Virus record (IMG/VR): IMGVR_UViG_3300029288_000075
Span: 96,001-160,000 of that record
Origin: a virus
Taxonomy: Duplodnaviria; Caudoviricetes
Length of the DNA: 64,000 bases
Reading direction: 5' to 3' (one strand)
Part shown: piece by piece, positions 4,333 to 41,995 of the stretch
Layout: each line of letters starts with the position of its first letter
Position numbering within the stretch: the first letter of the stretch is position 1
Notes under the pieces: model-generated
Told to the model about the DNA's origin: nothing
The model's database searches: none
The model's input: the letters and a program-made list of their open reading frames with translations, nothing else
Position numbers and translations under genes: made by a program

Positions 4333-4748
4333 AGACTCCCGAGGGCTGGGCGCAGGCAAATCTATTGCTTGCGACTCTGAGGAGGCCGCCACCTCGGGGG
4401 TCTGCGCAATCGTATGTATTACAGGCACTCCTCATACACAAGGACCAGATCGAGTACATGCGCACGCTCGCGCTGGTGCAGGCAATCGTCAACAAGGAAG
4501 AGGCAAGTAAGACACTTGAAGCTTATCGTGACACGCAGATGCCGTATCTACCTCGAGTACAGAAGGTGGACCGGCAGAAGCACATTGAACGACTGATGGC
4601 TGAGGTGTCGAAAGGCCCACTGAAGATCACGCACGTCATGCACAAGCAGACAAAAAGCAAGTTGAGATCTCGGGTGATTCAGCGGTCGCAGGCAGAGCAG
4701 CTGGCGGCTGACAGGCGCTTGTCCGGAAAGATGGGCGGTATCGTATGA
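4320..4748 (+). CDS. -1 frameshift extension (gpGT-like C-terminus)
   Basis: GKWIKTPEGWAQ... frame has no start codon with an obvious RBS near 4330; its stop overlaps the next ATG. Confidence 0.65.
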   Translation, partial: GKWIKTPEGWAQANLLLATLRRPPPRGSAQSYVLQALLIHKDQIEYMRTLALVQAIVNKEEASKTLEAYRDTQMPYLPRVQKVDRQKHIERLMAEVSKGPLKITHVMHKQTKSKLRSRVIQRSQAEQLAADRRLSGKMGGIV

Positions 4749-12720: not shown

Positions 12721-13192
12721 CTTGACGCTTCGGAGTGCCTTCGAAGGTTCCACCGGGCGGGATGCTCATGAAGATCCCATCGTTACGCTTGAACACGAAC
12801 AGCATCCGCATCATGCAGTCCGTGGTAGTGCATGTAATGAGGCTCGGGTAGTTGTGCCCTATCTCTCTCGATGCACCTAACCTGGTGTAACCTACCTCTT
12901 GGTCATGGCAAATGTCGACCCACACCATGGCCTTGCCATCAGCGTTGGACTTTTCAATGTCTTGGGCCACCAGGTAGATGCCATGCGCTTTGACGTCGAT
13001 GGTCCCATGCATCAGTCGAAACTTGCACGGGTCGTCGTCGGGGTGCGCCAGTAGTCTTCCCAATGAACTGCCTATTGGGATGACTACTGGGTTTCCACTC
13101 TCTACCGATTTGCCCATTGGTACGCCCAGCGTTGGTCGCACGGTAATGCGGCAGCCTGCGTTGACTCTGTCAGATACCTCGTAGACACGCAT
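12614..13192 (-). CDS. hypothetical protein
   Basis: GAGGAGGAG RBS and an upstream GGGGATAAG promoter. Confidence 0.7.
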   Translation of the reverse strand: MRVYEVSDRVNAGCRITVRPTLGVPMGKSVESGNPVVIPIGSSLGRLLAHPDDDPCKFRLMHGTIDVKAHGIYLVAQDIEKSNADGKAMVWVDICHDQEVGYTRLGASREIGHNYPSLITCTTTDCMMRMLFVFKRNDGIFMSIPPGGTFEGTPKRQVIWWDGQELHQIVRQMPTRPSMPLARPPHLVAAAS

Positions 13193-13233
13193 CGCTCCTC
13201 CTCGTAAGCAGACCCCACGTCCGCTTCAAGGTA

Positions 13234-13262
13234 CTTATCCCCGAGCTATGCATGCCTTTTCA
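13234..13262 (-). promoter_or_regulatory. Phage promoter motif, copy 1
   Basis: TGAAA-N15-GGGGATAAG. Confidence 0.7.
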
Positions 13263-13267
13263 GGCAG

Positions 13268-13546
13268 TCAACTGGCTAGGAGCACTGGCTGGAAGTACGC
13301 GAAGGCAGAGCGCACCGCCTGTAGAGCGCACTCCCGAAGACTTGCCAGATCTTCTGAGGGGGTCGGTAGTCTGTACACGACCGACAGTGCGAGTTGGGCC
13401 GACGCCTCGGAGGTCACATCTAATCCCCGTAGAGCTTGCACCGCGACGGCATGCCCCGCCCGCTCGTAGTCGGTACGGCACATGTCGAGCATTACCTGTG
13501 CATTTTCGAGGGCATTGGAGCGCTCGATGTAGGTTTGCTTTGTCAT
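13268..13546 (-). CDS. hypothetical protein
   Basis: Coupled member of the minus-strand operon, AAGG RBS. Confidence 0.6.
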   Translation of the reverse strand: MTKQTYIERSNALENAQVMLDMCRTDYERAGHAVAVQALRGLDVTSEASAQLALSVVYRLPTPSEDLASLRECALQAVRSAFAYFQPVLLAS

Positions 13547-13728
13547 GGGTCACCTTGCGGTTGGGGTTTGATTGAATTGCCTACGTGTAGTGTGGTCACT
13601 TCTTTCCGAAGTTCAAGAAAATTCAGCGTGCGTGCTTGTAGTGGGTTCAACTCTTGTTGGCAACCTCGTGACGAACTGGGGGCTAAGAAAAGACGATGAA
13701 GGCTTACCGCCCTCACGTCCTTTCCCAT
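13543..13728 (-). CDS. small hypothetical protein
   Basis: AGGA RBS, MGKDVR...; stop overlaps the next ATG. Confidence 0.45.
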   Translation of the reverse strand: MGKDVRAVSLHRLFLAPSSSRGCQQELNPLQARTLNFLELRKEVTTLHVGNSIKPQPQGDP

Positions 13729-13742
13729 GCAGTTTCCTGCAG

Positions 13743-14087
13743 TTACACCACGCGTCGCATCGACCACAGCGTGCCTGCCAACGCCAACATCGCGATGGGT
13801 ACAGCCACCGAGCACACCTGCAGTGTGCGTTTAGCCAACCCCCAATAGGTGTATTCCCTGGGCACATATACGCTGGCTTGCGCCATTTGCTGCGCTGCCT
13901 GCTCCATGCCTCCCAAGGCAGTGCCTATGGTTTCCAGCACCTGCAGTGCCGGGTCGCTCTTGGTCTTCCTGGTTTGCGCGGTCTCCTGCTGTACTTCGCT
14001 CATGTTCGGTTCCTCCACGGCGCTTAGGCCGTAACGTTGTTGTAGTTTTCGTCGAGCACTTTGCTCTAGGCTGCGCACGTCAATCAT
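13743..14087 (-). CDS. Protein with a C-terminal transmembrane segment
   Basis: MIDVRSLEQ...; hydrophobic VCSVAVPIAMLALAGTLW. Confidence 0.6.
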   Translation of the reverse strand: MIDVRSLEQSARRKLQQRYGLSAVEEPNMSEVQQETAQTRKTKSDPALQVLETIGTALGGMEQAAQQMAQASVYVPREYTYWGLAKRTLQVCSVAVPIAMLALAGTLWSMRRVV

Positions 14088-14196
14088 CGAAGCGCCCCCG
14101 GGCTTGCGCCTCCCGAATCGCGTGCATGGTTTCGTTGTGTTGCCGAATGGCAACTTTGAGCAGGGAAATCCCTGTCCACGCTAAAGTGATCAGCAT
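14080..14196 (-). CDS. 38-aa small protein absent from the ORF track
   Basis: GGAGGAACTACA-ATG; MLITLAWTGISLLKVAIRQHNETMHAIREAQARGRFDD; overlaps the next start. Confidence 0.55.
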   Translation of the reverse strand: MLITLAWTGISLLKVAIRQHNETMHAIREAQARGRFDD

Positions 14197-14217
14197 TGTA
14201 GTTCCTCCACTACCTTT

Positions 14218-14245
14218 CTTATCCCCGTTTATGACCACTTTTTCA
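14218..14245 (-). promoter_or_regulatory. Phage promoter motif, copy 2
   Basis: TGAAA-N14-GGGGATAAG. Confidence 0.7.
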
Positions 14246-14280
14246 CGGAGCTAAGTTTCAGTGTGTCAAGGTCCTGTAAA

Positions 14281-14428
14281 CGGCACCCCACCAGCGAAGT
14301 GAGGGGGAGGGACTTCGCTGGTGGGGCAGTGGGGTAGAACTACGGTGGAGGCTTGCCGAAGGCAGCCACCGCGTAGGCGTTGGTCTCAGAGGAGGTAACC
14401 TGCCAACAGAGGAGATGCGCAACACCTA
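14281..14428 (-). ncRNA. Candidate structured small RNA with C-rich anti-SD-like loops
   Basis: Lies downstream of promoter copy 3; three hairpins, including a perfect 15-bp stem at 14286-14326; no RBS-led ORF. Confidence 0.45.
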
Positions 14429-14435
14429 CAACTAT

Positions 14436-14464
14436 CTTATGCCCTGCGTTCGCTGAAGTTTGCA
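14436..14464 (-). promoter_or_regulatory. Phage promoter motif, copy 3
   Basis: TGCAA-N15-GGGCATAAG. Confidence 0.6.
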
Positions 14465-14480
14465 GTGCTACGCTAGGGGC

Positions 14481-17400
14481 ATGCCGCTGAGTTCCAGCCA
14501 GATTGCGCAGATGAACGGGGCGTATGCCCAGCAGTACATGCAGAACCTGCAAATGTCGCAGATGATTCAGCCGCCTGGTTACAATCTCGGCGGGTACAAC
14601 ACGGGTGCACAAAACGAGGGAGCGGCAGCTAACGTCCTAAATAGGGGGTCTGCAGTTGGGGCACCCATCGCTGCGTTGGGAATGGGGTTGATGGGACTTG
14701 ACCCATTGTCCATGGGGATCCGTAGAGGAATGGCGGCGCACGGCATGGGGTTGGGTCTGGGTGGTTCTATGGTTGCGGGAGCTGCGGTAGCTGCGCCGAT
14801 GATGGCTGGCATGGCTGGCATCAGTTACATGGGCAACCAGATGATGACTGGTGCGCAGCAAACGCAGCAGTTTCACCAAGATATGCGCCAGGGGTACACC
14901 TTCTTCAATGCGGGGGGTACACATGGTAGAGGCTTCTCGGACCGCGGGATCACGCAAGTTGGGCATGACCTTCGCGGCATGGTCGGGCAGAGCGCTGGGC
15001 AGTTTGGGGGTACCTCAAGTCAGTTCGAGCTGGGTCCAAGCTTTGCAGAACTTGGCCGTTTGGCTTCGAGCATGGGGCGCATGGGGTTGGCTGACGGGGT
15101 ACGCAACGCCAAGGAGTTCACCGAGAAGTTTCGCGAGATGATGAAGTCGGTGAAGACCATTGCGGAGGACATGGGAACCACGCTGGAGGAAGCGCAGAAG
15201 ACCATGGCCGCCATGAAGGGCTCAGGGGTCTTCCGGAACCAGGCTGGTGTTGCCGGGGCGATTCGTGGCGCCAGCGTGGCAGGAAACATGGCGGTCACCG
15301 AAGTGACCGGGATGATGAACATCGGCTCTCAGATCAGTCGTATGTTCGGAGGCACTGGGCGGCAGGGCGCCATGGGCGGCATCAAGACGCTCGAGCAGGT
15401 TGGGCTTGCCCACCAAACCGGTGTGCTCTCGGAGGAGGACATCTACAACACCACTGGATTGACGGGGGCGGAAGGGCGTCGCGCCTTCGCGCAGGACCAG
15501 ATGATGCGTACAGGCTCTTTCCTCAAGAGCTCGAAGGGACGTTGGCTGATGGCGTCTTTGGCCGGCAAGGATGGGAAGTTGGACCAGGGGTCGGTCAACG
15601 ACTTCTTGGCCGGGGGTATGGGTGTAAACGACACCAGAGGTGCGGCTCACCGTAATCTGCGCGGCGTTGGGCGCGCCAACTTCATTCGAAATGAGGGTCG
15701 GCTGCGTGGCGCTGTGATGGAGGAATTTGGTGGCCTGGCGCCGGCGATGGCCATGATGGGTTGGGCTCAAGGCAAGGGGCTTGACATCAACTCCATGGGG
15801 GATCGGGAGATGCTGTTCATGCAGCGTCAGCTGGGTCTTGGGCGCGATGAAGCGGACTCTTTGATCAAGATGACGCGGGCATTGCCGGAGTTGATGCAGC
15901 ATCGTCGGGATGCCAAGGTTGACGACAGGTTTGCGCGCGAGCACGGGGTACGTGCACAAAACTCAGGGATAGAGGGGATCAAGCGGCGTCTCGACGCGGC
16001 CAAAGACAGCGTCAACAACGAGATGCAGAAGGTAGGACAGTCGGTGCTCGAGAGCATGACTGACACGGTGGCCGAATGGGGTAACAAGCTGGCCGGCACC
16101 TACGAAGAACGTGCCTACGAGGGTATTCGGGAGACCCACAGAGCGGCGCTTAGCGGGGGTCGCGCCGGTAAGGCGGCGACGGCCGCGCTTACTGGTGGAG
16201 GCAAGCTGTCGAAACTGTACGGGGCATCCGGCGGTGGCGGCTTCCTGCACGAGGACATTGGGCAATCGCGGTACGCGGAAAAGCTCACCGACATGCAGTT
16301 CTCTGCGCGCATGGCATCCGTCTCCGGCGTTTCTTCGGAAGTCAGCGCCTTGCTGGGTAGCAGCAGCTCTGCTTTGCGTGAAGCCTACGGGGGTACCGCG
16401 GGGCTCGCGGGGCTCGCGGGGGAAGACCGCATGTCTGCCTTCAAGCGGCAGTTCGGCAAGGACACTGCGTTGGGAAAGCACTTTCGCAGTCTAGATGCTG
16501 GAGGGCAGGCCGCCTTTATGCAGCAGGCAGAAGCCTCGATCGGCATGGACAAAGGGCGCCTGAGCGAGACCTTCCAGATGCCGGGGTTGGCCAAGCTGGT
16601 GGGGGGTGGTCCTGACCATACATTGGCCAAGCAGGACGAGCGACTCGGACGATCCATGCTTGGGCTCGAGCGCGGGGGTTTGGCAAGGGCGGCCGACCTG
16701 ATGGGTAAAGTGGGTGGGGGCGTTTTGGGAGCCCAAGTGACAGCGGCTGGAGCCGGCAGTGGCGCGGTGTTGGGTCTTGGCTTTGGCGCCATCCCAGGCG
16801 CGGTGTACGGCGCCAAGTTGGGCGGGTGGATTTCTTCAGGCATGGGTGCACTTGGTGGTGCGGCTGGGGATTTGATCGAGAAGTTCTCTGGTAGGTCCGG
16901 TATGGCCAAAGCTGCCGGTGCAATCTTCGAAGGTAAGCAGATGCGCGAGCTCGCCTTCGGCACGCTCACCGGCGAAGCGGGGTCCCGCGAGAAACTGCAG
17001 AAGGCCCGTATGGACATCCTGGGCGGCGCGGCGGAGCGCGGCGGGATGGACAAGCTGACCGACCAGGAAAAGGCCATGCTTGGTGGACTCGACGCCATTT
17101 CGTTGACGGCAAAGGTGAACACCGCCATCAACGCAAAGGGCGGTGACCCCAACAAGATGACGGACGCAGACTGGGAACCATTGCTCAAGGAGCGGCGTGC
17201 GGCGGTAGAGAGGATGGGAGGGGATCCCAGCACCGTTACAAAGGACTCTGTTCGGGTGATGGCACAAGGCGTTGGAGCTGCTGCGTACAAGGCGCAGGCA
17301 GAGATCATGGATAGACTTTCCAAGCAGGTTGGGCGTACTACGCAAGAAGAAGTGCAGGTGATGCGTGCAGGGAAGATTGCCACAGGAGAAGGCAAGCAGC

Positions 17401-28168: not shown

Positions 28169-28756
28169 ATGCGCGTATGCCCTGTTTTACTAGGCTATTT
28201 GAGTGGCCTGAGAAAGCACATTGACTTTGATTCTCCTCTGAACGAATTCGGTTTGCCCACCCAGGAGGAACTGGAAGAACGGTGCAAAGCCCAACTGGTG
28301 TCAGAGGCTACTTCACACTTGCGCGGATTCTACTGCGTACAGGAGACGCTTGCTAGGCTGGCACTGCGCTGGCCAGCTGCGGTTCTCATGCCAGAGATGC
28401 CCAAGGCGAGCATGTCGGCGTACTACTTGATGCAGGTCGTATCTTGGGTACGAGAGGTAGAGGATCTTCTTGCCGGCAATGCGTTGGAGACTGCGGTCAT
28501 GCAACGTACGCTACCTCTGCAGGAGACCGGAGGAGGGCAAGTACATCAGCAAGATGCTGAGAGGGCGTCTAGGCTTTGTTCGTACCTTGTGTTGGAGGCC
28601 ATGCCCCTACGCAGGTCCCTCAAGGACAGACGCACAAGTTTGCGGCGGGTTGGTCACTACTATGCCCGCGTGCTATTGGATGTTGGGACTAGCGTTGCCG
28701 CTGCTCATAGAGAGGCGTTGGCATTGAGCCAGAACGTGGAGGAGAAGTATGCCTGA
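28169..28756 (+). CDS. hypothetical protein
   Basis: GGAGGA RBS. Confidence 0.7.
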   Translation: MRVCPVLLGYLSGLRKHIDFDSPLNEFGLPTQEELEERCKAQLVSEATSHLRGFYCVQETLARLALRWPAAVLMPEMPKASMSAYYLMQVVSWVREVEDLLAGNALETAVMQRTLPLQETGGGQVHQQDAERASRLCSYLVLEAMPLRRSLKDRRTSLRRVGHYYARVLLDVGTSVAAAHREALALSQNVEEKYA

Positions 28757-38870: not shown

Positions 38871-39131
38871 TCAGTGAGTTGTAGGAGACATTGGGTAGCA
38901 CTGCAGGATGAGTGTGCCTTCTCCGTTGTCGTAGTCACCCAGGTATTCGTCTTCTACTTCTATGGTATCGAGTGGTTGCACATGGCCCACTGTGGTTTCT
39001 GGGCCTTGGTAAATGACGGTGCGATCCCTAAGATAGGCGCATAGCTCTACGGGACGGCACGGGGTTTCGTTGGGTACGTCGACCACAAAGGTCGGGTCGT
39101 CGAACTTTTTCAGACGGGTCATTCCTTGCAT
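38871..39131 (-). CDS. small hypothetical protein
   Basis: GAGGAGGA RBS and promoter copy 5. Confidence 0.65.
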   Translation of the reverse strand: MQGMTRLKKFDDPTFVVDVPNETPCRPVELCAYLRDRTVIYQGPETTVGHVQPLDTIEVEDEYLGDYDNGEGTLILQCYPMSPTTH

Positions 39132-39151
39132 GTGGTTCCTCCTCTACCTAT

Positions 39152-39180
39152 CTTATCCCCGAATTTGCCCACTTCTTTCA
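39152..39180 (-). promoter_or_regulatory. Phage promoter motif, copy 5
   Basis: TGAAA-N15-GGGGATAAG. Confidence 0.7.
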
Positions 39181-39264: not shown

Positions 39265-41995
39265 GGATCTATGGAGACTGTACCGTGGGTGATGTAATCG
39301 ATCGCAAGCCCCCTCAATGGCAAAAGAAAGCCCCAGTAGAGGTCGACGAAGACGCCATGATTCTGAGATTGGCGAGTGCTGTACTACGCACACTCACCGA
39401 CGAAGTGGTTCCCACGCAGGCGCAAATTGCTGTACTGCAGCTAGTGAAGCGCGCCGTGTTGGGAAACTACTTGGCGGCAACGCCTAGTGCATCAGCTCGA
39501 GAAGTCTTGTCGCAAGCCAACGCCTTGGCCAGAAACTACTCTGTCATGGGTGCAGACGGACAAAGCTATGACTGAAGAAACTACGATGAACGAGCTGACT
39601 GCAGTGGAGCTAGACCGTATCGACACCGTACGCGCACCGCCGCTATTCTTGGACTCTTCTCCTTGCGCATCGTTGGAGGAGCTGCGGGAATCGCTGCAGC
39701 AGCCGCTAGAGAAAGGGACTGTAAACAATCCATGACGTCACTTTGGCTACTAAAACTACGAGTGCTAGAGACCGCGCGCAAATGGTGGGAGATGCATAAG
39801 CCCGTCGACTGGTCTTTGGAGAAGCACTTGCTCAACCCAACCATCAATACGTGTGGGGAGGATGAGAGTGCGTTAGCGCGCTCTGTGGCCTCGTTGGTCA
39901 AGGAGTCTTGGCAATGGGACGACGCCGAGCCCATCGTACGAGACCTATATGGGCTGGTGAAGGACATGGAAAGCGCCAAGAAAGCGAGGCCAGACCGGCA
40001 CTTGATCCTGCGCAGGGCAGAAGCTTTCTTGGGTTTGCGGACAGTGTCTGAGGTGCCTGCTCCCATAGAGAGGGCAAAGGCCAAGGGAAAGCTGCATGAA
40101 ACACAGCAAGCGCGGGGCACGTGGCGTCAAGGGCAAAGAGCGTAAGCAGGGGGACTGTCCTTCGCGGCAGCCCTGGAGAGGAAGAACGAGCAAATGGCAA
40201 GGTCTACGACTGGAAGAAAGCCTAGAAAGGTTGGCAAGAAGGCCACCACCAAGCTCCGGACAGCAGCCAATGTCCGCAACGCAAAGAAGAATCCTCGAGT
40301 TGCAAGCCCACTACGCGAAGTCCTCGCACACATGACGGGAAAGAATCCTCCAAGGTTTGTACGTGGCTATTCGCTGGACGAGCTGTCTGACGAGGAGTAC
40401 GAGCAGCTACACACGTGGGCGGTCAAGAACGTACGACCTCGTTGGCTCACGGGGTGTGGCCTACTGGAGGCTGCTGAAGATCAGGTACAGGACGCGGTCA
40501 GCAATGGCAACATCCTTCCGTCCCCCGACTCATTGTCAGGTAGGGTGGAGGCCGCACAGCGAGTCCTACGCCGTCTACGGCAGCGGTATGATGCTGCGCT
40601 ACTAGACTTGGCTGTTGCTGTGGAAGGGCAGGCCAGGAGGACCCAGCATGACTGCAACTGCAAAGCGATGGGCTGAAGAGGTCAAGGATCCAGTGCTGTT
40701 TCTGAAGTGCTTGCATAGCGCGTTGAATGATCCCGATGTCTTGCCGGAGTTCGACAGGCTTACTGGATTTGACTTGTGCATGCGGCGCCCAGCCATAGAA
40801 CAGGCGATAGACAAGGCCACTGGCATGCTTGACGGTGGTGTTGAGGCGTTTCTGAAGTTTGTCGTGGATGCCATTTACCTACCAGTCGAGAAGGAGCTTT
40901 CGGAGATTCATCATGAAAAGTGACAGCTACTGCACTACCTTTTGCAATCACCCGCATAGACTGTCCGACGGCAAACCTATCGCGCATGAATGCTATGTAC
41001 TTCCAACTGCGGCACTATATGCAGAGAAAGCAGGAAAGATAGGGCTGGCAGTCGAGGAGCTGTCCAAGTGGAAGAACCGCAGAGTGCACCGTGGACTCAA
41101 GGAATCCCGTGCCTCATGATCATGACAGTATCGGTAGTGATGTGCGACCACTGCCAAGATCTGAAGTTTGCTTCGCACGTTGAGGCATACCGCGTAGCTG
41201 ACGGACCTACGCTGCACATCTGCTGTATTTGCCAGCGCAAGCCTTTTCGAAAAGTGCAACCGGCACCTAAGCGGATAGCTGCCCTCGAGCTGATACGGCA
41301 GGCTGCGGAACACCTGAATGACTGAGTACACGCCCCCAGAGCGTCAGTTGATTTCGCACGAAGTAGCACTGGCGCTGGAGTTCGAACAGCTGATTGAGGG
41401 GCTGTACGAGGAACGTGAGGCTGGGGTTGCCGCGCGTAAGAGGTTCATGGATGGGGTCCGTGCGCTGTTGGAGGCGCCCGTTGTACGTGAACCAGTGGTT
41501 ATGAACCAGCAGCAATGGGAGGACATCCTGCGATACGAGGAAGGAGTTCGAATGAAGGACGACACACTGCTGATACGGCGGGTTATACGCAACGGCGCTA
41601 ACAGATCCTCCACGGGGCCTGTTGTTGCGTCAGCCAGGGAACTTCGTAGGTTCGGCATGGACAAGAAGCCTGTAGCGCCTGCCACCTACACGAAGCGCAA
41701 CCGAAAGAGCAAGCGGTGACAGAAGCAGCAGATGAATACCGCCGGCTGTACAGCGAGTTGTTGTTTGCTCGTGAGCTAGATGGCGGTGATCTATCGCAGG
41801 AAGAAGAGGCACATCGCTGCGGTCAGCTCACTGACCTTTGGAACGAGATGACCGAAGAGGAGCAGGCCTCTTTCGAGCGGGATCTGGTGTCACCCTCCCC
41901 TGGCCTTCCATATAGCGACAACCCGTTGGGAGATCCGATGACGGATATGCGCACGGTGCTAGGAACCGGCGGCCTACCTCGCCAGCCTGCAGAGG

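Follow-up and report, generated by a model that had tools for sequence, protein, structure and literature searches.

The window, as the whole stretch of DNA analysed here is called, comprises 64,000 nucleotides and corresponds to bases 96001-160000 of a 187,857-bp IMG/VR virus record that is rated 99% complete. The majority of its genes run rightward. At the locus of interest, a leftward gene module and a large rightward gene diverge from each other, and the RNA locus described below sits in the gap of about 284-285 nt that separates their starts (14196 on the minus strand and 14481 on the plus strand). The flanking genes are the following.

From the ATG at 14481, plus strand: rightward gene for a 1220-aa protein
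Ending at the ATG at 14196, minus strand: leftward module for a 38-aa membrane peptide, a second small membrane protein, a 92-aa protein, a 192-aa protein and a GNAT acetyltransferase
14080-14196, minus strand: gene for the 38-aa peptide, which has a hydrophobic N-terminus and a charged tail

The acetyltransferase is assigned to the GNAT family by Pfam (E 1e-15) and, together with the genes for the 92-aa and 192-aa proteins, is syntenic in all the relatives of this phage, which are denoted below by L and a number. The gene that comes next after the RNA varies among phages, while the module further downstream is syntenic. The 38-aa peptide is kept beside the RNA, or one gene further, in the window, L005, L006 and L223, and apparently also in L007 and L008; it may represent a small membrane peptide or one of a lysis type.

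Within the gap, a repeated promoter-like motif occupies positions 14432-14444 of the minus strand and forms the proximal part of a promoter that faces leftward.

14432-14464, minus strand: promoter of the RNA, with a -35-like TGCAAA (14459-14464), a 17-nt spacer and a -10-like CATAAG (14436-14441) that lies within the repeated motif

The -10-like SATAAG of this motif is preceded, at a distance of 17 nt, by a weak, A-rich element that resembles a -35 box. The motif itself, GGGSATAAGAWAG, has three exact copies within the window, all of them on the minus strand; when up to two mismatches are allowed, the window contains seven matches where 2.9 would be expected, and the whole genome contains eight minus-strand copies with zero or one mismatch. 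In seven of these eight, a GGAGG-type Shine-Dalgarno (SD) sequence and a start codon follow within about 10-20 nt, and the sole exception is the copy at 14432-14444. The preliminary description of this DNA was therefore right in pointing to an orphan leftward promoter copy with no SD-led ORF after it. Only about 36 nt lie between the motif and the divergent ATG at 14481, which leaves room for no other leftward promoter; consequently, the motif has to be the leftward promoter itself and not a piece of a longer leader. From the promoter spacing, transcription would be expected to start near 14429. The motif is also present upstream of the RNA in all nine homologues, and its core exceeds a control pattern in all five related phages, with enrichment on one strand in four of the five.

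Outside the RNA locus, the motif is part of a promoter-leader cassette (A-rich -35-like element, GGGGATAAGAWAG, GGTAGWGGAGGAAC and ATG) that heads every leftward gene module, with seven gene-linked copies; examples lie at 14197-14243 and 39131-39177 of the window. These cassettes look like a dedicated promoter class with a very strong SD built in.

What follows the orphan promoter copy is a real, conserved gene for a non-coding RNA, which together with its promoter takes up positions 14278-14464 of the minus strand.

14278-14429, minus strand: structured non-coding RNA of about 150 nt, both of whose ends are predicted positions, the 5′ end from the promoter and the 3′ end at or after a GCCG tail

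The preliminary description had proposed a discrete, structured, minus-strand RNA at this place, and its own promoter, a conserved fold and covariation now substantiate that proposal. The sole ORF over the RNA is a 55-aa frame with a GTG start (14258-14425). This small protein-coding ORF was rejected, as it has no counterpart in the relatives, where indels are not multiples of three. Moreover, an invariant loop of the RNA (the P2 loop described below) is read in one frame in the window and in a different one in L006 and L008, and thus the 55-aa frame has not been kept.

Relatives of the locus were found through both protein and RNA. The N-terminal 507 residues of the 1220-aa protein led to five IMG/VR phages of 186-195 kb with 71-77% identity, and a deeper search with a protein profile, meant to reach more distant phages, yielded these five again and none beyond. 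In four of these five, the RNA element lies directly upstream of the big gene and shows visibly compensating changes in its long hairpin. A covariance model built from five sequences scores 104.9 bits on the RNA of the window, which is its single copy in that genome, and matches the fifth phage, L005, at 77 bits. The homologues score 77-157 bits and come from all five related phages and at least three further distinct metagenome contigs; among the matches listed from a pattern scan followed by the model, the metagenomes also hold one truncated and two duplicate copies. By contrast, a first, loose DNA pattern matched 119 stretches of IMG/VR, and outside the known relatives none of them was convincing to the model (17.8 bits at best). 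In bacterial and archaeal genomes, a tighter pattern gave at least 120 matches, and among the matches listed none reached E 0.001 with the model. No GenBank phage matched positions 13000-16000 by megablast. An Rfam search, the check that had been named for a known family, gave no match either: across the whole window, none of the 4227 families of Rfam 15 passed its gathering threshold, and at E up to 10 the region 14150-14550 produced only chance matches to miRNA and lncRNA families (11-17 bits against thresholds of 50-90). What emerges is a real structured RNA family, not catalogued before, that belongs to a small clade of phages.

The intergenic region of about 285 nt folds more stably than its shuffled versions (z = -4.0; none of 200 shuffles did equally well), and the excess is seen on both strands, at z about -4. 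On plain MAFFT alignments, RNAalifold returned the same core of three helices, P1, P2 and P3, with five and with nine sequences, and changes on both sides of a pair were found in 20 of 37 pairs and 20 of 31 pairs, respectively. In the alignment fitted to the covariance model, 23 of the 37 pairs have changed on both sides and 91.9% of the 347 pair cells are standard. Shifting the partners by one to three columns lowers this share to 37-52%, and the observed values were reached by none of 500 shuffles. Covariation across related phages, which the preliminary description had named as a check, therefore supports the three helices and, in addition, a pseudoknot of 4 bp.

14420-14429, minus strand: 5′ strand of helix P1, pairing with 14373-14382
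14373-14382, minus strand: 3′ strand of helix P1, with covariation
14383-14419, minus strand: large loop of 37 nt closed by P1, with CU tracts 1 and 2
14342-14372, minus strand: hairpin P2, with an extension peculiar to this phage and an 11-nt loop (14352-14362)
14329-14335, minus strand: single-stranded joiner with CCCCAC, invariant in the alignment
14285-14327, minus strand: hairpin P3, with 16 bp and an 11-nt loop
14355-14358, minus strand: 5′ half of the pseudoknot, CGGC in the P2 loop
14281-14284, minus strand: 3′ half of the pseudoknot, the GCCG of the 3′ tail

P1 shows double changes in six of nine pairs with 93.8% of its cells paired, and P3 in nine of 16 pairs with 94.3%, while an inner hairpin within the P1 loop, P1a, is weak (78.6% paired). 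The 11-nt loop of P2 is invariant in the six phages found through protein homology alone; the loop of P3, by contrast, varies among the homologues in both length and sequence. The 5′ strand of P1 is similar to the leader of the promoter-leader cassettes, and the RNA gene has therefore probably been derived from such a cassette.

In the pseudoknot, YGGC of the P2 loop pairs with the GCCR that comes directly after P3, and all 40 of its pair cells are paired. At the variable position, six sequences have C-G and four have U-A, and none deviates. As the tree of a neighbouring protein nests L005, a phage with U-A, within the C-G clade, the pseudoknot must have undergone at least two independent double changes. 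The 3′ tail adjoins P3 without a gap, so that the pseudoknot helix should stack on P3; the invariant CCCCAC joiner may then cross this helix. P2, the pseudoknot and P3 form a compact 3′ domain. An alternative pairing of the joiner with the 3′ arm of P3 was discarded because the joiner stays constant where P3 changes (L007 and L008).

Every element of the preliminary description could be located in the sequence, although several of them take on another meaning in the light of the relatives. The perfect 15-bp stem (14286-14300 with 14312-14326) is present, extended by a closing G-U pair, and is conserved as P3, but its C-rich loop, CCCUCCCCCUC, is not. The parts of a hairpin that was to hold ACCUCCU in its loop are all there, yet the simple hairpin loop did not hold up, since the longer, covarying P1 competes for the same CAAC; according to the relatives, ACCUCCU is instead placed in the large loop closed by P1. 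Likewise, the CCUCC of a further hairpin exists in sequence but falls in the stem extension of P2 that only this phage has. Thus, from the three anti-SD loops originally envisaged, the tract in the P1 loop is kept among the relatives and predicted to be unpaired, whereas the other two, in P3 and P2, are specific to this phage.

Which strand is functional can be judged from the direction of the promoter, the balance of G-U pairs and the consensus energies, all of which point to the minus strand. The paired cells include 43 G-U pairs on the minus strand, which would be A-C on the other, against 13 of the reverse kind, and the alifold consensus energy is -46.9 kcal/mol for the minus and -40.2 kcal/mol for the plus strand. 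The preliminary description had kept open a plus-strand alternative, a sponge for CsrA, and these figures, with the leftward promoter, speak against it. In its wider form, this alternative takes the plus strand as a GGA-rich sponge of the CsrA/RsmA type, or else as purine-repeat DNA operators acting without any RNA, and it can appeal to two AGGAG-type repeats about 21 nt apart that are seen also in relatives. A sponge of the CsrB/RsmZ type was rejected, since the GGA motifs of the plus strand read as CU-rich on the transcribed minus strand, and Rfam gave no CsrB/RsmZ match. Operators would leave the covariation of P1, P2, P3 and the pseudoknot inexplicable at the DNA level, and in L005 the element is intact despite the insertion of a 560-bp gene that parts it from the plus-strand promoter. 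A functional plus strand is accordingly given hardly any credence here.

The other question raised by the position of the RNA is whether it is a separate transcript or merely the start of a longer one. Indeed, the beginning of the RNA coincides with the predicted start of transcription, and a conserved gene module follows it on its own strand, as would be expected from a cis-acting leader of the leftward operon, be it an attenuator that masks an SD or an element of the put kind that lets polymerase read through terminators. P3 itself is not an obvious end for the transcript: the terminator scan found none there, and no U-run follows P3 in most members, which suits a leader and counts against a freestanding small RNA. 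P3 was consequently rejected as an intrinsic terminator, its tails being GCCR followed by two or three mixed pyrimidines or A, with the tail engaged in pairing with the P2 loop. Two elements further downstream bear on the matter.

14247-14255, minus strand: the motif CUUAGCUCC (CUUAGCYCC), downstream of the RNA
14194-14226, minus strand: second complete promoter-leader cassette, with the motif at 14214-14226, the SD GGAGG at 14204-14208 and the ATG at 14194-14196 that begins the 38-aa membrane peptide

The first of these, CUUAGCYCC, occurs 25-35 nt past the RNA in five phages (window, L005, L006, L007 and L008) and recurs elsewhere in the genome, where at least six strong terminators made of a hairpin and a U-run have it as their tail; this shared tail suggests that transcription ends, or is meant to end, at that point. 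In L007, a canonical terminator formed by a hairpin and U5 lies 12 nt past the RNA tail, and a U-run terminator is perhaps present after the RNA of L223. Such terminator-type elements, namely that of L007 and the CUUAGCYCC tail, would equally serve a leader that controls read-through, as would a strong terminator at 13696-13716 inside the leftward operon, between the gene for the second small membrane protein and that for the 92-aa protein.

The second element weighs against a leader. In six loci, a complete promoter-leader cassette with its own short leader stands between the RNA and the following gene; because that gene is served by a full promoter of its own, it does not need the distal transcript. 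Furthermore, the downstream gene differs between phages, and the exposed CU tract has no obvious role in antitermination. L009 and L142 cut both ways: in these two, about 35 nt lie between the RNA and the next gene, a stretch in which no cassette promoter can be recognised, as in a leader and unlike what a separate RNA gene would predict, but this first gene has no SD that could be masked. A cis-acting leader thus ranks second among the functional readings and is considered rather unlikely. The suspicion that the region is only the 5′ UTR of the operon at 14196 is countered by the second promoter copy and the L007 terminator, which make it less probable, and the most likely reading of the sequence is that of an independent small-RNA gene.

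The terminators that carry this tail form a family with the common sequence YUUAGCCCC, often followed by UAG. One member lies at 13678-13716 of the window (minus strand), and others at genome positions 187830(+), 172637(-), 161247(-), 47691(-) and 25010(-). The reverse complement of YUUAGCCCC is one base off the core of the leftward promoter.

The large loop closed by P1 contains two pyrimidine-rich stretches.

14408-14415, minus strand: CU tract 1, UCUCCUCU, in the P1 loop, 5′ of tract 2
14388-14396, minus strand: CU tract 2, ACCUCCUCU, in the P1 loop

Tract 1 is CU-rich, conserved as a second tract and partly paired in P1a. In tract 2, CUCCU was counted in nine of nine homologues, though two of them are listed as keeping only CUCC; the tract has the form CUCCUUCU in seven homologues and CCUCCUCU in this phage. 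When P1 to P3 are enforced in the folding of the homologues, tract 2 is predicted to be mostly unpaired. Its possible counterparts are the leaders of the leftward cassettes, which carry very strong SD sites. In the relatives, the core of these leaders, AGAAGGAG(G), is exactly complementary to the conserved tract, and several leaders of this phage carry a shorter form, AGAGGAGG, that matches the CCUCCUCU of its RNA. The longest perfect match of each RNA to the leaders of its own phage is 8-11 nt, and over all RNA-leader pairings the mean match lies in the range of 4.9-8.1 nt; with random or other upstream windows, the RNA of this phage reaches 4.1-4.2 nt.

On these grounds, the reading ranked first, and tentatively preferred here, is that of a trans-acting RNA whose exposed tract is an anti-SD-like seed for purine-rich SD leaders. 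P1 would close the large loop and present the conserved pyrimidine tract, which might then act like the 3′ tail of 16S rRNA, pairing with such leaders and lowering their translation. The candidate targets that match best are leaders with a strong SD in the phage itself, those of its leftward cassettes, and host mRNAs could be targets as well. The 3′ domain, for its part, may end or stabilise the transcript, or bind a protein.

Nevertheless, several results do not favour the trans-acting anti-SD reading. RNA-leader pairs from one phage are not clearly better than pairs across phages, in either energy or mean match length, so that the complementarity may be a generic SD/anti-SD likeness only. 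A whole-genome RNAduplex scan with the P1 loop gave no outlier target apart from its own antisense; its best sites, at -36 kcal/mol against a mean of -14.7 and a standard deviation of 4, are at chance level for 94,000 windows. In addition, many plus-strand genes of the phage use GGAGG, and a broad SD-occluding repressor, as the preliminary description envisaged it, would hit the phage itself. Finally, the pseudoknotted 3′ domain, with its invariant loop and joiner, exceeds what a base-pairing small RNA needs, and for this reason a partner in the form of a protein or ligand is suggested.

A mismatch search for extended targets found one notable site, with a 10-nt perfect complement to tract 2 (AGGAGGTAAC). 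It lies at about 39820-39833 of the genome (minus strand), 56 kb before the window, where it coincides with the ribosome-binding site of an ORF of 276 aa that starts with TTG, and the match could be due to chance.

Among the rightward genes, the starts at 4745, 18409, 20318, 23787, 33563 and others have no SD within 20 nt, while GGAGG is present at 28169, 28749 and 31628; these starts were taken from the longest ORFs, and some of them are possibly misplaced. That leaderless genes would escape an SD-directed RNA, as the preliminary description supposed, is plausible given the many plus-strand genes that lack an SD; yet other plus-strand genes carry GGAGG. Since SD-less and GGAGG genes are mixed, such an RNA would act on part of the phage messages only.

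The vicinity of the 38-aa peptide gene also brings to mind a type I antitoxin, which usually has 18 nt or more of complementarity to its toxin mRNA. This candidate was rejected, as the longest perfect complement to any cassette leader is 8-11 nt and as the peptide gene is not next to the RNA in L007, L008 and L009.

The partner suggested by the 3′ domain leads to the reading ranked third, and judged unlikely: a protein-binding or decoy RNA that titrates a protein through the 3′ domain, the CU-rich loop or both. Candidates would be a factor with affinity for the 3′ end of 16S rRNA or for pyrimidine-rich RNA, such as ribosomal protein S1 or a ribosome-directed nuclease, or an RNA polymerase or sigma factor of the phage or its host. 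The 11-nt P2 loop and the CCCCAC joiner are invariant in a way that secondary structure does not explain, and the pseudoknot adjoins P3 for what is predicted to be direct stacking, a tertiary organisation that is typical of protein- or ligand-binding RNAs. The tract of L008 also shares 9 nt with the canonical 16S tail. Against a decoy, no partner protein could be identified, and apart from the syntenic module no protein gene regularly accompanies the RNA.

The same pseudoknotted fold, with its invariant unpaired nucleotides and its promoter-proximal position, would suit a ligand-sensing riboswitch or a self-cleaving ribozyme of an undescribed class. Either appears very improbable, as the Rfam search up to E 10 matched none of the known families. 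There is also no covarying alternative between terminator and antiterminator, the joiner ignores the changes in P3, and the second promoter bypasses the RNA.

A bolder variant of the preferred anti-SD reading, which strikes us as quite doubtful, is that the RNA is a mimic of the 16S 3′ tail, made by the phage to compete with ribosomes for strong SD leaders, both those of the phage cassettes and those of host mRNAs. Expressed from a promoter of early type, the mimic would shift translation to phage genes that are SD-less or leaderless, and the pseudoknotted 3′ domain might stabilise the decoy or recruit a nuclease. No virus is known to reprogramme translation by means of a decoy of the rRNA tail. 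The actual 16S tail, or anti-SD, is a single-stranded pyrimidine tract with a CCUCC/CUCCU core, and up to 9 contiguous nt of the tract in some relatives, including L008, are identical to it. In contrast to the 16S tail, however, the phage tract is internal, in a loop closed by P1, and its flanks vary between phages.

In working principle, the nearest systems are the csRNAs of streptococci and the RsaE/RoxS RNAs and, among phage RNAs, the c4 RNA of P1 and P7 and the put RNAs of HK022. The CiaRH-dependent csRNAs have an unpaired anti-SD and an anti-start codon, set at the spacing of a translation-initiation region between two stem-loops, and are thought to block translation initiation (PMC3091779). 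Like them, the phage RNA is small and non-coding and has an SD-complementary tract, in its case predicted to be unpaired. The differences are nonetheless considerable: csRNAs are chromosomal Streptococcus genes with CiaR promoters and usually two simple stem-loops, whereas the phage RNA is driven by the repeated leftward motif of the phage and has a closing helix, three hairpins and a pseudoknot. As for an anti-AUG, no CAU was found 5′ of the tract at the spacing seen in csRNAs; in L006 and L007 a CAU adjoins the tract directly, and the window has none. Membership in the csRNAs was therefore rejected, given the lack of a spaced anti-start codon and of a CiaR-dependent promoter, the other architecture and the lack of an Rfam match.

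In RsaE/RoxS and other small RNAs of Firmicutes with C-rich motifs, such motifs are duplicated and pair with G-rich SD regions (PMC6158497). The phage RNA resembles them in having two conserved CU tracts and a duplicated CCCCAC, one copy of which is unpaired. It differs in that the second CCCCAC is buried in P3, and there is no similarity in sequence or model; RsaE, moreover, has motifs of the UCCC type on a scaffold free of pseudoknots, while the scaffold of the phage RNA is pseudoknotted.

The c4 antisense RNA of phages P1 and P7 shares the strand of its target genes, is encoded shortly before them and blocks their ribosome-binding site through short complementary segments; it is processed from the transcript of its own target, in which it has two defined complementary sites. 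The phage RNA, by comparison, has a separate promoter and complementarity at the level of the SD only, of 8-11 nt. The putL and putR RNAs of HK022 are about 70 nt long, form two hairpins and act in cis on the host RNA polymerase, and they directly follow a phage promoter and precede terminators as well as a long operon. In position, the RNA described here fits this pattern, being promoter-proximal, structured and upstream of terminators; in contrast to the put RNAs, it is twice as long and pseudoknotted and has a conserved CU tract, and a second promoter bypasses it. With neither a model match nor the same promoter and architecture, it belongs to none of the csRNA, RsaE/RoxS, c4 and put groups.

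For large phages that have not been cultured, the number of known structured RNA families is small. The support for the one described here is unusually clean: it has its own promoter, three covarying helices and a pseudoknot, and it occurs once in this genome. Its fold is well supported, and a mechanism can be proposed from one conserved exposed motif. If the tract is indeed how the RNA acts, the phage would govern which of its messages the ribosomes load. Whatever the function, the family can be proposed to Rfam and offers a defined object for structure probing.

Two minor observations concern the DNA around the divergent promoters. In L005, the 560-bp insertion between the RNA promoter and the big rightward gene contains a gene for a Cys-rich protein (L005:3425-3945, minus strand), which looks like an HNH-type homing endonuclease and whose 3′ end overlaps the -35 region of the RNA promoter. 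In the window, positions 14388-14415 read on the plus strand as AGAGGAG blocks about 21 bp apart, roughly two helical turns, with similar spacing in the relatives, and a regulator of the divergent promoters might also use these blocks as sites on the DNA.
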